Origin: Candidatus Marinacidobacterales bacterium
GTDB taxonomy: Bacteria > Acidobacteriota > Vicinamibacteria > Marinacidobacterales > SMYC01
DNA length: 64,000 nt
Reading direction: 5' to 3'
NCBI GenBank assembly: GCA_965237955.1
Contig: OZ250169.1
Span: 6,368,001-6,432,000 of the forward strand
Below the pieces are notes generated by a model. The model saw only the letters and a program-made list of their open reading frames with translations. It had not been told where the DNA came from and ran no database searches. The position numbers were made by a program, and so were the translations under genes. Position 1 is the stretch's first letter. The number at the start of each line of letters is the position of its first letter. Below are positions 53,873 through 61,870 of the stretch, one piece after another.

Positions 53873-55073
53873 GGTGCTTCCGCCATCAACTGTTACTCAG
53901 GCCGCCAGAAGCTCGTCCACGATCGGGGTGGTCGGCAGCCGGCTCGGCACGGCGTACGTGATCGCGCCGATGCTTACTAATAAAGATGGCGGCAGACACA
54001 CGAATACCTTGCGGAAAGTGAGTCGCCGGGTGGCGAGTTCGGCCTGCATCGCCGGAGTCCGGGTCTCACGCCCGAACTTCAGAGCGCCGTGCGGGCGGAC
54101 GAAGTTGTAATGACAACGCAGCAGCTCGAGATGTCTTCGAGCTTCTCCTCCGAGCGAGCATGGGAGAGCGTTCGCCGGGACAGATAGGCCGAGCCCTGTC
54201 GGATGGTCAGATTCATCCGTTCAATGAACGACGTGTTCAATGTCGACGAGTCCTCCGAGTTATTGAGCACTTCTTCGAACCGCCACGACGCTCCCATCAT
54301 CTCTCTTCGTTCGACCTTCACGATACGATCGTTTCTTCGCGTCTTGAGCACCTGGCCGTACAGAGCCGCTGGACCAAAGACGCGACGGACTCCGTGACGC
54401 TCTTCTCATAGAAATCGAATCCGTCGGTGACGATCAAGGGAAGACGCTCGAAATCCATCCGGTTCGCGACGTCGCGCAGTAGAGCGAGCGCGCTTCGTGT
54501 TTCGGTAGCTTCGTCTTCCAGTCACTGTCGATGGCCAGAGCCGCGACCAAACCTCGATCGCGACGAATATCCACGTTGGCCGCGTCTTGCCGCCGGCGAA
54601 GGAGCGAATCTCGTCCGCCTGCAGCTCCTCGACGCCGAATTCGGCAGTCCGTCTCTGGTTGAAGCCACGGCAAACGTCGGCGGCTTTCTCAAGCCATCGA
54701 GCGACGGTGTTCCAGGCAAGCCCTTCGATCCGAGCAATCGCGTAAATGCTGACACCTTCGACTCTGAGAGCGACCACTGCGTCGAAAGTCGCCCTTCGAT
54801 GGAGAGTGTGCCTTTCGTCGAAGAGAACGTCTTTTCGCACTCGACGCACCGGTAGCGACGGCGTTTCCCGGATCTCGTCCGGTAGAATCCGTGCCGAACA
54901 ACGTTCCCGGAGCCGACTTTTTCATGCGGACGACATTCGGGGTTGAGACAGCTCGGACTTTTCACTCGCGTGGGCCTTGTCGACGAAAGAACTACGTCCG
55001 TCGAAATCAGGCGCAAACTCTAGCACGCAGACTGTTTAGGGCCTGCCCACCAACACTTGATTGCGGAAGCACC
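53873..55073 (-). mobile_element. IS1-family-like element, degraded
   Basis: IRs GGTGCTTCCGC; zinc ribbon CLNPEC...RYRCVEC, QADEIRSF, NTSFIERMNLTIR in several frames. Confidence 0.82.
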
Positions 55074-55329: not shown

Positions 55330-57369
55330 ATGATGAAAAAAATCCATAATTTGAAACTTTTTGGATTGGTGGCCTTCCTGGCTTTTGCTTTGGTTTTTAT
55401 TGGTATAGACGTTATTGAAGGCCAAACCCAAGACCGCCCAGCACTGGAAGATTACAGGATCATGCCAATTTTTCCTGGGCAACCTGTATCGGATCCACAG
55501 ATATCCCCTGACGGTACCAAAGTTCTCTTCACTTACAGGACCGCGAACGTGAAAGAGGACAGATACCACAGCCACATATGGCTCCTCCCCTTGGATGAGA
55601 AAAAGCCGAAACAGTTTACATACGGCAACGGCAACGACAGCCATCCCAGATGGTCCCCAGATGGGAAGACCATCCTTTTCCTCTCCGATCGTTTGAGCGA
55701 GGAGAATAAACCAGGGATGCAGATATTCGTGATCCCTGCCGACGGCGGTGAGGCAAGATGTCTTACCTCTGTAGAGGAAGGCGTTGAGCGCCCCACCTGG
55801 TCCCCCGACGGCAAGACCATACTTTTTCTCTCAAACGTCTTCAAAGGTGAGAGAGCGAAGGGCAGCGACATCATGATCATCAGACGCATGCCTTACAGGA
55901 ATACTAGTGGTGAATATATATATGACAAGTGGACGCATCTCTTCTCAGTCCCGTCCAAAGGCGGTGAGGTAAAGCAGCTGACCGATGGAGAGTTCAACAT
56001 AAATATGGCCGTCTGGTCCCCCGATGGCAGCCGCGCAGTCTTTCTCTCTCGCGGGCGCATCTACACCATCTCCTCAAAAGGAGGAGATCCAGAGCTTCTG
56101 TGGAAGGCTAACGGATCTATAGGAGCTCTAGGATTGTCCCCGGATGGGAAGTACTTCGCTTTCGGTGCGAGTGAAAGGGTTAGAGCGGACCCTGCCCCCC
56201 CCTTCTTTAGAAATTCCGACATTTCCGTCTTACCAGTAGAAGGCGGTGAGCCTGAGAACCTCACGGCTGACTTCGATAGGGATGTCAGCCGGAGTCCGTT
56301 GATTTGGTCTCCTGACTCCAAATACATCTACTTTTGGACTGACGACCACGGGAGCAGACACCTGTACAGGGTTAGCTTGAACAGAGAGGTGGAGAGGGTG
56401 ACCGAGGGAAATATTACCGTAGGGGGCTTAAGCCTGGACAGAACTGGTTCTGTTCTCGTCTTCAACGCTTCGGATGCTATGACCCCGACGGAGCTCTGGA
56501 TAAAGGATGAAAAAGGCACGAGGCGCCTCACGGAGATGAACGAGGGGTTGCTGAGCAAGCTGAGGTTGAGCAAGCCCGAGGAGTTCTGGTTCACCGCCAG
56601 CGACGGCGTCAAAGTCCAGGGATGGATAGTCAAGCCCCATGAATTAAAAGAGAAGGAGAGGTACCCGACGATCTTCTTGCTACACGGTGGGCTATACAGG
56701 GGTTCATACGGATTCCGACCGATGCCGCGCGCGCAGGTATTAGCGGACCACGGCTTCGCTGTGGTGTACATGAACTTTAGGGGCAGTGGCGGGTACGGAG
56801 AAGCCTTCGCAGGCGAGGTCTTATTCTCGCCCTCTGCTGACGGCTCAGGCAACTGGGGTGATCGGGATTACCAGGACATCATGGAAACCGTAGACTATGT
56901 CATCAATACCTATCCCTTCATCGACCCTGAGAGGCTGGGCGTCACGGGCGGCTCATACGGAGGCTTCATGACGAGCTGGATTGTTGGGCAGACGGACCGG
57001 TTCAAGGCGGCCGTTAGCTCGGCAAGTAGGAACAACCACTACAGCAGCATGTTAACTTCTGCTAGTTATGGGACTCGCCCTGAGATCTCTGAGAGGAAGG
57101 CCCCGTGGGATAACCTGCAGCGGCTCATGGAGAAGTCCCCCATCACCTACGTCAAGAACGTGAAGACGCCGCTGTTAATCATCCACTCTGAACTGGACTT
57201 TGTTACTGCGATTGAACAGGCTGAACAGCTCTTCACAGCGCTGTGGAAGCTGAAAAAAGTTGTTGAGTTCATCAGAATCCCCAACGAGCCCCACGGCGTG
57301 AGAGGGCCTAAGCACATAGTGGAGAGGGAACAGCACACAGTCAGATGGTTTGACACATACCTAAGGTAA
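55330..57369 (+). CDS. Secreted S9-family (acylaminoacyl) peptidase
   Basis: AAGGAGG RBS, PD40 repeats, GGSYGG, HSELD, NEPHG. Confidence 0.95.
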   Translation: MMKKIHNLKLFGLVAFLAFALVFIGIDVIEGQTQDRPALEDYRIMPIFPGQPVSDPQISPDGTKVLFTYRTANVKEDRYHSHIWLLPLDEKKPKQFTYGNGNDSHPRWSPDGKTILFLSDRLSEENKPGMQIFVIPADGGEARCLTSVEEGVERPTWSPDGKTILFLSNVFKGERAKGSDIMIIRRMPYRNTSGEYIYDKWTHLFSVPSKGGEVKQLTDGEFNINMAVWSPDGSRAVFLSRGRIYTISSKGGDPELLWKANGSIGALGLSPDGKYFAFGASERVRADPAPPFFRNSDISVLPVEGGEPENLTADFDRDVSRSPLIWSPDSKYIYFWTDDHGSRHLYRVSLNREVERVTEGNITVGGLSLDRTGSVLVFNASDAMTPTELWIKDEKGTRRLTEMNEGLLSKLRLSKPEEFWFTASDGVKVQGWIVKPHELKEKERYPTIFLLHGGLYRGSYGFRPMPRAQVLADHGFAVVYMNFRGSGGYGEAFAGEVLFSPSADGSGNWGDRDYQDIMETVDYVINTYPFIDPERLGVTGGSYGGFMTSWIVGQTDRFKAAVSSASRNNHYSSMLTSASYGTRPEISERKAPWDNLQRLMEKSPITYVKNVKTPLLIIHSELDFVTAIEQAEQLFTALWKLKKVVEFIRIPNEPHGVRGPKHIVEREQHTVRWFDTYLR

Positions 57370-57445
57370 ACGTGAGATCTTTATATGAGAGATGAAATAA
57401 CTATTTGGGTTCCACATCAATTGTTCACACAACTATCATTAAATG

Positions 57446-57803
57446 GGTGCTTCCGCGATCAAGTGTTGGTGGGCAGGCCCTAAACAGTCTGCGTGCTAGA
57501 GTTTGCACCTGATTTCGACGGACGTAGTCCTTTCGTCGACAAGGCGCACGCGAGTGAAAAGTCTGATCTGTCTCAACCCCGAATGTCGTTCGCATGAAAA
57601 AGTCGGCTCCGGGAACGTCGTTCGGCACGCCCTACTACCGTCTCCAGCATCGAAGGGCTTTCCGCGAGGTATTCGTGTGTCTGCCGCCATCCTTATTAGT
57701 AAGCATCGGCGCGATCACGTACGCCGTGCCGAGCCGGCTGCCGACCACCCCGATCGTGGACGAGCTTCTGGCGGCCTGAGTAACAGTTGATGGCGGAAGC
57801 ACC
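57446..57803 (+). mobile_element. 358 bp MITE derived from the IS1-like element
   Basis: Same IRs; first ~215 bp and last ~140 bp match the two ends of 53873-55073. Confidence 0.88.
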
Positions 57804-58279
57804 TCGAGAAGATGCAGGAAGCGCTGGACGCCATCGGTTTCTCCGCGCCGTCGAGGAGCTAAGACGGTCTTGTGCTGCCGCTTCGGACGGAGCGCGGTCT
57901 CGGATAGAATCAGGGCAGCCCCCCGCCCTGGTCATTGATGAGATTTCCGCAACCGCTCCTTCTCGTTCTCGCCCTCGCGGTGCCCGTCCATGCGGGGCCT
58001 CAAAATGGGCCCATCGACTACGAGACGGCGCGCCTCGAACGGCGACTCATGGCGGTGCGCACGTACGGAGCCATTCTTCTCGACGGGGCGCTCGAGGAGG
58101 GCGATTGGCGCGAGGCCCCGGTAAGCCAAGGACTTCATCCAAAGAGAGCCCCGGGAGGGGGAGCCCGCCACTTTCGATACCGAGGTCCGGGTTCTCTACG
58201 ACGACCAGAACCTGTATATCGGCGTCGAGGCCTACGACAACGAGCCGGACAAGCTCATCATCCGCGACCTGACCGGAAA

Positions 58280-59664
58280 CTACTTTGCAGCAGCCTCGGG
58301 AGTGAGTGTAAAGCCGAGCTTTTCGGCTGCCTTTCGCAAGCCGTTGATGTGGTTTCGGCGAAAGCGCTCCTCGAAGGCAGATGCACCGATGTCTGTGTAT
58401 TCGTGACCATATTTGAGCATGCGGAAGACGAGCTGAGCGAGCTTTCTTGCGGTGGCAAAGATCGCGGTTTTAGCGTCTTTACGTCGGGCGATGCGGCGAT
58501 AGTAAGCACCAAGTGCGGTCTTCGAACGGTTGAGTGACAATGCAGCCATGCGTAAGGCACCGGCGATACGGTTGGAGCCGGTGCCATTGGGGCGTTTGTA
58601 GAGTAGCTTTCCACCCGAGATGGGGCGGCGCGGCGCAAGACGGAGCCACGAGACAAAGTGATTTTCACTGGGGAAGGCAGAGAGGTCGAACCCGACCTCG
58701 GTGAGTAGGATCGCGGCGGTATCGGGGCTGATGCCGTCGATGCGGGTGAGATCGCATCCAGCAAAACGCCACAGTTCGGTTCGCTGTTCCTGCTCGCCGC
58801 GGCGCCGCATGGCGCTTTGCTTGTTCGGGTTCGGATGAGCGGGCACACTGTCGTGTCTGCGCTCGGTCGGCTGAAGCTCGATGACCACTTCACGGATAGA
58901 CGCTGGTCGTAGAGTTCGATTTCGGCTTGTAGCACATCGTAAAGGCGCAGCGCCGATGCGAGATTGAAAAGATGCTCGTCACGCCAAGTGCCGGTGAGAT
59001 GCTCTGCGATTTCGTCTACGCTTTTCTTGCATCGATGATCTCGAAACTCGGCGAGCTTCATCGGGTCACGTTCGCCAGAAACGATGGCACGAACGATGAG
59101 CATTCCGGTCTTACCGGTAATGTCGGTCACCGCACGGTGGACTTGCACGTTCATCTGGTCCAGAGCCTTCTGCATCCATTGGACGGCTTGGCCCCGATGC
59201 TCGATTAGTTCTTGACGCTGCCGGTGCATCGAGCGTAATCGGCAAATCGACTCCCCCGGGCGAAACGAGCCACGCAGAAGTCCGCAGCTGTGTAACGTCT
59301 GCAGCCATTGACAATCTTGCATATCGGTTTTGCGACCCGGAACGTTCTTCAGCTGCCGAGCGTTGACAAGAACGACCTCGATACCACGGGATTCGAGCAA
59401 CTCATAAACCGGAATCCAATAGACGTGGGTGCTTTCCATCGCCACCGACTCCACACCTTGCTCGATAAGCCAATCCGCAAGCTCAACCAGCGCCGGCGTT
59501 GTCGTGGAAAACACCCGCACGTTCGGCCGACCATCAGCTAGCTGCGGACCGCAGACCCAATGCTCTCGACTCCCGAGATCGATGCCCGCTACCATCGGTC
59601 GTATCGACGGCAGGGAATTCCGTGAGAGACGCTTCGCCGCTTTGCTCTTCCTTCGTTTGTTCAT
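58280..59664 (-). CDS. IS110 DEDD recombinase, frameshift near 58890
   Basis: GIDLG, MESTHVYW, KTDMQDC; C-terminal ISGGK serine motif, ATARKLA. Confidence 0.92.
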
Positions 59665-59690
59665 TCGCTCACCTCAAGTGTATTTTGTGA

Positions 59691-59849
59691 GCGAAGGCTC
59701 CGGCCCGAGATGGCGATCGAATGGATTCTGACCGTGGGGAGTGCTTTCGTTGGAAGCCTCGCCAATGATAGGGAGCCGGCTCGGACCCAAGCTGACCCTG
59801 GGGCATCATGCACCAATGACAGTACGGGGCTCGCTGCCGGAGCCTTCAC
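59691..59849 (-). ncRNA. Candidate IS110 bridge RNA
   Basis: Closing stem GAAGGCTCCGGC/GCCGGAGCCTTC enclosing two guide-TGG-hairpin-CCA-guide modules that match target and donor. Confidence 0.7.
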
Positions 59850-61870
59850 CGACAACCTTTCTACCAGCTTTGGTAGTTTCCTACTTGATAGGCCCGGCCT
59901 CCGGCCGGGGGCGTAGCTGACCCGTGACTACAACACGCGCTCCGTCGATTCCGTCGCCATCATCCTGGACACGTTCCACGATCGCCGCAACAGCTACACG
60001 TTCGAGACGAATCCGATGGGGGCCAAGTACGACAGTCAGTCTTTCAACGAGGGGCAGGAGTCCAACCACAACTGGGACGGCGTGTGGCACGTTGCCACCC
60101 GCATCGTAGAGACGGGCTGGACGGCGGAGATCGCCATCCCGTTCAAGACCCTGAAGTTCAGCGATGCTCGAGTTCAAACCTGGGGCGTCAACTTCATGCG
60201 CCGGAACCGGCGACTGAACGAGGACAGCTTCTGGTCGCCCATTCCAAGGATCCATACCGCAACCCGCGTTTCGCTCGCCGGGACCCTGGAGGAGATGCGG
60301 GACGTGCGTCCCGGATCGAGTTTCAAGCTCACGCCCTACGTGACCAGCGGCGTCACCGAGAACGAGCAAGCGCTCCGGGAAGGGGATTTCGATGCGGGCC
60401 TCGACGCGAAGATCGGAATCGGCACTGGCCTGACGCTGGACCTGACACTCAATACCGATTTCTCCCAGGTGGAGGCCGATGTGCAGCAGGTGAACCTGAC
60501 GCGGTTCAGCCTCTTCTTTCCCGAGAAACGAGATTTCTTCCTCGAGAACTCGGGCATCTTTCGTTTCGGTCCACCGGAGAGCCCGCGACGGAGGGCCTTT
60601 CGGAGCAGTTTCGGCCTGGCGGCTGGAGGAGGTGTGCGTGGTGGTCAGAGCCGGGGCAACGATTTACTCCTGTTCTTCAGCCGGACGATCGGCCTCTCCG
60701 AAGACGGCGAGCCCATCCCGGTACGCGCGGGAGGACGCCTTACCGGCCGCGCGGGATCCTACCAACTCGGGTTTCTCGGGATCCTGACCGGTGAAGAGAT
60801 GGGCATCTCGACGGGTGACAGCTTCAGCGTCGTGCGGGTGAAGCGAAACGTTTTCGCTAACTCCGACATCGGCGTCATGTTCATCAACCGGGAGACGATG
60901 GACTCTTCTCACTACAACCGGAGCATCGGTGTGGATGGCAACTTCCGTCTCAATCCGGCGATGGACGTCAATGCCTACATTGCCAAAACAGCTACGCCCG
61001 AGCTCGAAGGGGACGACCTCGCCGGCCGCATCGCCTACGCCTTCACCTCGAGGTCGCTGAATTTTTCGGCGTCGTACTCGAGTCTCCAGGACAATTTCAA
61101 CCCGGAAGTCGGCTTCGCGCCGCGGCTCGGCGTTCGGCGTGCGAGGGCCAACGTCCGGTACCGCTACCGTCAGCCCTGGTGGCGGGGCATCGTGCGCGAG
61201 ATCGGCCCCAACCTGGATTTCGACCACTTCACCGACCAGCAGGGCAAGGTGGTGAGCCGTTACGTCAACGTCCGCGTCTCGTTTCGGCTGCAAAGTGGTG
61301 GCATCGTCGCTCTCGGTCGACGTGGCAGCCTCGAGCAGCCCACAGATCCTTTCGAGATCCATCCCACGACGACCATCGAGCCCGGCTTCTACACCTTCGG
61401 CGAGAACTTCTTTACCGTCTTCACCGACCCGAGCCAGCTTCTCTCCAGCAACGTCAGCATCTCATCGGGCGACTTCTACTCCGGAAAGAAACAAACGTAC
61501 AGACTCGGCGGGGCGCTCAAGCTCGGCGGCCGGCTGACCGCGGTGGCCGCCTGGTCGTTCAACGACGTCGACGTCGACGAGGGGGCTTTCACGACGCATC
61601 TCGTCACGACCCGCTTCATCTACGCCTTCAGCACGAGGATGTTCCTGAACGGTCTCGTTCAGTACAACAGCGTCACCGAGGAATGGAGCAGTAACATCCG
61701 GTTCAACTTCATCTACCGCCCGCTTTCCGACTTCTTTCTCGTCTACAACGAAAGTCGGGACGATCGCGGTCAGCGCATCGACCGTGCGCTCATTGCCAAG
61801 TTCACCTACCTGTTCGATTTCTGAGCGGAACCCGGGGGCATTAAAGGGTTGATGGTCCGAGGAGCACACG

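Follow-up and report, generated by a model that had tools for sequence, protein, structure and literature searches.

In the window, meaning the whole 64,000-nucleotide stretch of DNA analysed here, both donor guides of a predicted IS110 bridge RNA match one and the same strand of the element at sites about 30 bases apart; the match of the left donor guide lies within the left end and not at its canonical place. Since both guides match the same strand at this distance, the donor is likely recognised as a strand folded on itself, and we think it probable that this donor is a fold-back single strand or a cruciform, of which only the top strand is exchanged. More tentative is our proposal that a large and deep IS110 clade combines an RNA-guided recombinase with an obligatory self-folded single-strand donor; its scope is 41–100% identity to the window protein, with at least 7,225 protein clusters matched in one search and these partly checked.

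Results

The element, its copies and the interrupted gene

The IS110-family element occupies 58269-59922 on the minus strand (1,654 bp, including a 6-bp word common to both ends). Its left junction (59917-59922) and right junction (58269-58274), read on the plus strand, each consist of the core CT and four shared nucleotides. The source genome (G000) contains six full copies and one interrupted copy, and the same 6-bp word stands at the break of all seven left and all seven right junctions. The left end comprises 258 bp and the right end only about 11 bp past the stop codon. An element boundary at the internal site described below was ruled out, as the extra 24 nt are found in all seven copies. 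The element interrupts a plus-strand gene for a DUF5916 protein (PF19313), whose upstream part ends at 58268 and whose downstream part covers 59923-61824. In contigs from two of four runs (X1 and X4), 58268 is joined to 59917 with six letters shared, and the DUF5916 frame continues across this empty site; the target that the initial annotation had reconstructed is thus real. The window allele is also present gap-free in the contigs of X1 and X4, which may include the window's own source.

The recombinase gene (58280-59664, minus strand; PF01548 and PF02371) is frameshifted in the window copy by two extra bases near 58900. This frameshift is common to four of the six full copies, including the window copy, and the other two, on G000 C1 near 4,255,260 and 5,054,044, encode a 460-aa recombinase. 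The window recombinase carries the D, E, D and D motifs of a DEDD RuvC-like domain and, aligned with the IS621 loop, the catalytic serine of a Tnp domain, and the best fold matches to the predicted model of a 91%-identical homolog are IS621 and ISCro4. In the model P0001, residues 175-221 form a cluster of short helices between two long coiled-coil helices. This cluster is part of the extra length over IS621 and might, as a guess from the model, be the hairpin-binding part.

One tandem element junction exists in G000, and another copy lies inside the right end of a relative. The second copy of the tandem adjoins the right end of the interrupted element copy (G000:C1). At G000:C1:5051614-5053055 and 4905567-4910148, an element copy and a related element (76–78%) have each been split by other insertions, of about 1.4 kb and 4.6 kb. 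A loose end resembling a circle junction was not counted, as the copy within the relative's right end explains it equally well. In run X4, the flank of a loose end behind window position 59922 equals that of the copy at G000 4,255,260 save two differences, which create a match to the element's own right-end repeat and may reflect a strain variant or conversion during recombination. Elsewhere in the window, a 679-aa peptidase-like ORF (55330-57369) lies between two pieces of a further insertion sequence that looks IS1-like by eye (54079-55016 and 57425-57790). No relatives of the element were found among viral contigs.

The predicted bridge RNA

The initial annotation had proposed a two-loop bridge RNA upstream of the recombinase, and its architecture is borne out. 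The predicted core, a closing stem with two guide loops supported by folding and by homolog covariation, covers 59691-59849 on the minus strand. A perfect 12-bp stem (59693-59704 with 59836-59847) is present, the 14-nt arms extend through a U-G pair on the minus strand only, and all guides of the two loops stand on that strand where they had been placed. Loop 1 holds the left target guide ACTGTCA (59817-59823) and the right target guide GGGTCAG (59792-59798) with a 2-nt handshake-like extension (59790-59791). The right target guide recurs at the left junction (59917-59923) with 7/7 matches, or 9/9 with the next two bases (59790-59798 versus 59915-59923). Loop 2 holds the left donor guide CCTATCA (59766-59773, the 7-nt word being 59766-59772) and the right donor guide CGGTCAG (59728-59734), which recurs 7/7 at the right end (58269-58275).

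The folding z score was −2.4 for the 165-nt RNA and −3.0 for the 257-nt end, while the single-sequence minimum free energy structure of the inner loops was unstable. A search against Rfam gave only two chance snoRNA matches, both outside the RNA, and scans of the left end for a sigma-70 promoter and a terminator gave none. The left end was without transcript cover in contigs of the RNA runs X10 and X11, although contigs of this kind cannot show absence.

For comparison, 173 homologous loci were gathered, five from the same genome were dropped and the window was added, which gave 169 loci. Of these, 134 could be parsed and yielded 87 distinct guide-and-site sets; the remaining 35 escaped the pattern, being short or deleted, lying on the opposite strand or having diverged too far. 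All permutation tests below ignore kinship. The right target guide, scored with its controls as the best AG-ending word in a search window, matched the left junction at 6.49/7 (4.45 permuted; 79 sets), and the right donor guide matched the right end at 4.90/5 (4.26 permuted; 81 sets), with 5/5 outside the core in 77 of 81. The first handshake base agreed with the first left-end base in a fraction of 0.77 versus 0.52 (75 sets). RNAalifold was given the window with 36 of 57 non-redundant homolog RNAs, and these 37 sequences shared 35 consensus pairs, 17 of them with compensatory changes. In the consensus, the guides lie in two internal loops, except for two predicted guide–guide pairs. When homologous left ends were folded and compared in this way, compensatory pairs were found and the right guides tracked junctions.

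A second IS110 family, 56% identical and present in the same genome, carries right guides of another sequence, and these match its own junctions. Its copies (541345, 632121, 2887221 and others) often land in one repeated sequence, by appearance beside the end of an insertion sequence, and its left donor guide word is the left target guide word of the window element. Canonical IS110 families of the same genome were dropped as a positive control for want of clear boundaries.

From this covariation the left end almost certainly encodes a genuine IS110 bridge RNA, here a predicted RNA, with loop 1 for the target, loop 2 for the donor and the core CT, as the initial annotation had supposed. The one-base co-variation of target and donor that it had pointed out holds on the donor side across homologs and is weak on the target side, where three of seven left junctions in G000 have G. 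The loops and core of its bridge-RNA reading stand, but the reading falls short in assuming an IS621-like duplex donor, to which the left donor guide does not conform.

The left donor guide and the internal site

The left donor guide has an exact match within the left end at 59886-59892 on the plus strand, which the earlier reading had missed; the chance of one given 7-mer occurring in a 258-nt end is about 0.016. This internal site, our proposed surrogate for the bottom strand of the donor, lies 25-31 nt inward of the left end, with a conserved hairpin on one side of it and a 9-bp subterminal inverted repeat on the other. Across 74 sets, the left donor guide scored 0.73/6 against the canonical left donor and 5.03/6 against the internal site. 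In fixed register its match to the internal site was 5.98/7 (4.87 permuted; 80 sets), and with a register of ±1 it was 6.48/7 on average (5.23 permuted), comprising 45 perfect sets, 28 at 6/7, seven at 5/7 and none below. Mutual information between guide and site peaks on the diagonal at positions 2-6. Guide and site disagree 36 times at positions 2-7: in 23 cases a wobble pair with the antisense strand could still form, and four cases are of the reverse type; when distinct guide/site pairs were counted once, these numbers became 10 and four of 20 mismatches.

Ten distant homologs (41–57% identity), chosen and read by eye, gave 5.2/7 for guide versus internal site (2.58 permuted) and 0.9/6 for the canonical position. 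This set excludes L149, L154, L156, L174, L178 and L181 (shift, bulge or unclear register), L175, L179 and L180 (the L176 clade), and L147, L162 and L177 (partial or deleted). Counted on an 80-row protein tree, the guide changed 30 times, the site 35 times and both taken jointly 48 times, so that by arithmetic about 17 changes coincide. Tree-aware independent-pairs tests were not significant, with one to four pairs per test, and were underpowered.

The hairpin and the subterminal repeats

A 7-bp DNA hairpin (59893-59909, plus strand) separates the internal site from the 7 nt of the left end nearest the core. The subterminal inverted repeats, read in the window sequence on the plus strand, are 9 bp long (left 59873-59881, right 58275-58283); their mean length in 70 sets was 7.0, including 5 bp that were used as parsing anchors. 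A stem of at least 5 bp abuts the site in 71 of 75 homolog sets, with 23 different stems and a mean of 5.39 versus 2.87 after shuffling. In 73 of 80 sets, 5 nt separate the internal site from the left repeat, which is also the spacing between the core and the right-end repeat.

The antisense strand of the reconstructed circle junction folds into a stem of the 9-bp repeats plus the hairpin, at −15.1 kcal/mol. In this fold the core faces TG of the internal site, and both are equidistant from their own repeat. The predicted geometry is that of an opened donor duplex, in register, built from one strand. The four bases adjacent to the core vary freely (1.2–1.8 bits), even among close relatives. Copying of these four left-end bases from the flank was considered and rejected (0.86 versus 1.02 expected).

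In two homolog families, hairpin, site and repeat persist in short units joined end to end (28/30 and 4/7 cases by pattern), and the pattern misses look similar by eye; the shortest mini-element keeping this block is 60 bp. Tandem arrays of mini-elements of 60–190 bp, each made of the left-end block and the right end, occur at L021, L023, L032, L050 and L036-L064, and the four bases after the core differ between their units.

Target choice

Across homologs, the left target guide matches the right flank weakly in the canonical register, and so the top strand is the strand antisense to the gene; it is on this strand that the core of the predicted system reads CT. This match amounts to 2.10/6 versus 1.46 (z 5.5), in 78 of 120 flanks left after tandem-like and duplicate ones were removed. 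At the six landing sites of the window element, one of which represents the paired outer flanks of the tandem, this guide matches 3, 1, 2, 3, 1 and 1 of 6, which is near chance, and the initial annotation's reservation about the left guide of loop 1 was well placed. Against the element's own repeat motif, the same six sites score 6, 7, 5, 6, 5 and 6 of 7, and in 86 homolog flanks the five bases beyond the right-guide match lean toward the repeat motif. We infer that the recombinase protein recognises a repeat-like motif at targets. Target choice would then rest here mostly on the right target guide and a motif resembling the element's own inverted repeat, and would therefore lead to landing in its own and its relatives' right ends. 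Reading the left target guide as a fold-back along the right flank gave no offset above |z| 2.3 (75 flanks). Further landing sites were sought in the reads, which yielded one flank that was known before and one consensus that was unclear.

In a sister clade, the left flanks of L002, L004, L005, L008, L009, L094, L095, L099 and L142 show a palindromic landing site, in which the reverse complement of the right-guide word stands directly upstream (7/7 in 8 of 86 flanks). These palindromes hint at two complexes or a hairpin target. A distant subgroup (L150, L175, L176, L177, L179, L180) has a core that is not AG, and its members land in A-runs within a different insertion sequence; by eye, these runs look like the frameshift site of an IS3-like element. 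Four independent elements (L061, L108, L136, L145) have a similar repeat-like right flank which, as an impression only, may be CRISPR repeats.

Discussion

According to the fold-back model, a circular copy of the element's top strand would be made, or this strand would be extruded as a cruciform. Pairing of the 9-bp inverted repeats would close one side and the left-end hairpin the other, so that the core and right donor would face the internal site, in register, across an open bubble. The right donor guide could then pair with the core side and the left donor guide with the internal-site side, in the way of the two strands of the IS621 duplex. The top strand alone would be exchanged with an ordinary duplex target, with replication or repair completing the insertion, and such an exchange would give exactly the observed junctions. 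The second exchange is presumably suppressed, because it would give hairpin-capped ends; a T-T mismatch at the second core position may, speculatively, be what suppresses it. By analogy, the insertion would be finished by replication or repair as for integron attC sites. At attC sites and IS200/IS605 ends, the folded single strand is the substrate, one strand is exchanged and replication resolves the product. To our knowledge, attC recombination works without an RNA guide, and the attC and IS200/IS605 enzymes are unrelated to the IS110 recombinase.

Published work on other family members bears on this model in both directions. IS621 is described to excise a single-stranded circle (10.64898/2026.08.31.748434), and top-strand ssDNA of CazIS110 integrates (10.1101/2025.10.25.684509). 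Against the model, CazIS110 is reported to prefer dsDNA about 20-fold at one junction (10.1101/2025.10.25.684509), IS621 circles are proposed to turn double-stranded before insertion (10.64898/2026.08.31.748434), and a point mutant of the ISPpu9 A-box palindrome gave normal minicircles by end-point PCR (PMC12288879). Deletion of the ISPpu9 A box abolished minicircles, and the authors leave the role of the palindrome in integration open (PMC12288879). In our data, the orientation bias predicted for a lagging-strand-template substrate was not seen in that direction: six of seven copies are co-oriented with weak GC skew and the second family is mixed by hand count, which is uninformative on strand bias.

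All guide–site covariation would be accounted for if both sites stayed double-stranded and the left donor guide opened the internal site as a separate anchor. This could happen within a duplex that forms a loop or with the help of another RNP by a donor-loop/donor-loop half-match, and the hairpin would be no more than a helper. Such a split duplex donor also fits the ISPpu9 minicircles that survive mutation of the palindrome (PMC12288879) and the half-match recombination reported for IS621 (10.64898/2026.08.31.748434). But by itself it leaves unexplained a hairpin that abuts the site with so many different stems, as well as the in-register 5-nt spacing at both repeats, and gives no reason for one donor loop to reach two same-strand sites. 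We consider it unlikely, although worth keeping in mind.

The left donor guide may instead be vestigial, the right guides and protein recognition of the repeat motif being sufficient and the resemblance of guide and site coming from shared ancestry or gene conversion. The nearly idle left target guide of the window element, the repeat-like motif at its landing sites (5-7 of 7) and the non-significant tree-aware tests are in keeping with this view, but guide and site change together from 100% down to 41% protein identity, about 17 changes coincide on the tree (30 and 35 separate versus 48 joint) and mismatches are skewed to wobble pairs, which makes vestigiality improbable.

It is highly improbable that the left end is only a translation-blocking leader which yields no functional guide RNA, with the matches as by-products. 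The lack of RNA cover in the X10 and X11 contigs, the lack of an Rfam match and consensus promoter, and the regulatory structured leader described for ISPpu9 (PMC12288879) would agree with a leader, but dozens of elements have right guides that follow their own, mutually unrelated target and donor words, the wholly different words of the second family in the same genome are likewise tracked, and the scaffold contains compensatory pairs. Inversion of the spacer of about 30 bp by a first recombination, building a canonical duplex donor that then integrates, would by sequence logic bring the guide-matched left half next to the core, but is hardly credible, as all seven left ends in G000 are un-inverted and the would-be canonical 12-mer was found five times and never at an element end.

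For a donor folded from a single strand, no earlier description was found in the literature searched (figures, preprint supplements, subscription journals and ISfinder lay outside its scope). Bridge-recombinase editing tools assume a duplex donor, and recent preprints show single-strand excision; a clade with ends built to fold would join the two, and would make it possible to test directly if single-strand circles serve as true substrates. A folding donor would also explain the failure of standard donor reconstruction for many orthologs. If the model is true, the clade would offer a programmable integrase for ssDNA cargo that needs only about 60 nt of ends and exchanges one strand, comparable to an integron integrase guided by RNA. 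A minimal test system is given by the two naturally intact copies together with the 60-bp mini-elements found in relatives.

Comparison with known systems

The window element shares with IS621 and ISCro4 (IS622; PDB 8WT6, 9T56) the DEDD/Tnp fold and an RNA in a long left end (PMC11208160; PMC13626964; 10.1101/2025.05.14.653916), as well as the target loop preceding the donor loop, the CT core and right guides that pair with the top strand. The dinucleotide after its right target guide sits where the IS621 handshake guide lies (PMC13626964). The proteins differ more, with about 20% identity in structural alignment and 460 aa here versus 328 aa. The left donor guide of IS621 is described as pairing next to the core, with the bottom strand (PMC11208160). 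In the predicted window RNA it does not pair there, so that one defining feature of an IS621-type donor is absent, and it matches the internal same-strand site instead. The four core-adjacent bases, read by a guide in IS621, are freely variable here. The repeats are 7-9 bp and about 41 bp apart in the circle, whereas those of IS621 are given as 2-3 bp and flank a 14-bp donor; moreover, the top strand is antisense to the gene here and the left target guide is weak. The subterminal repeats fall within the 7-17 bp range given for the IS1111 group (IS4321, IS5075, ISEc11; PMC11208160), but here a long left end, and not a long right end, carries the RNA.

CazIS110-1 resembles our model in its top-strand copy-out and top-strand integration, whereas its guides are described as canonical (10.1101/2025.10.25.684509). 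ISPpu10 uses a DNA stem-loop as an added recognition layer, placed in the target and not in the donor as far as that source describes (10.64898/2026.03.19.712850). In the report on ISPpu9 and MITEPpu9 of Pseudomonas putida, as far as its available part goes, the palindrome is dispensable for circles, REPs are the targets, and no guides are mapped and no folded donor is proposed (PMC12288879). Nevertheless, these elements are alike in having AG at both ends on the gene strand, in an A box with a palindrome after the core whose layout is the same by eye, and in MITEs built of two element ends (PMC12288879), and 13 nt of the ISPpu9 A box are, by eye, identical to the site region of the homolog L157.
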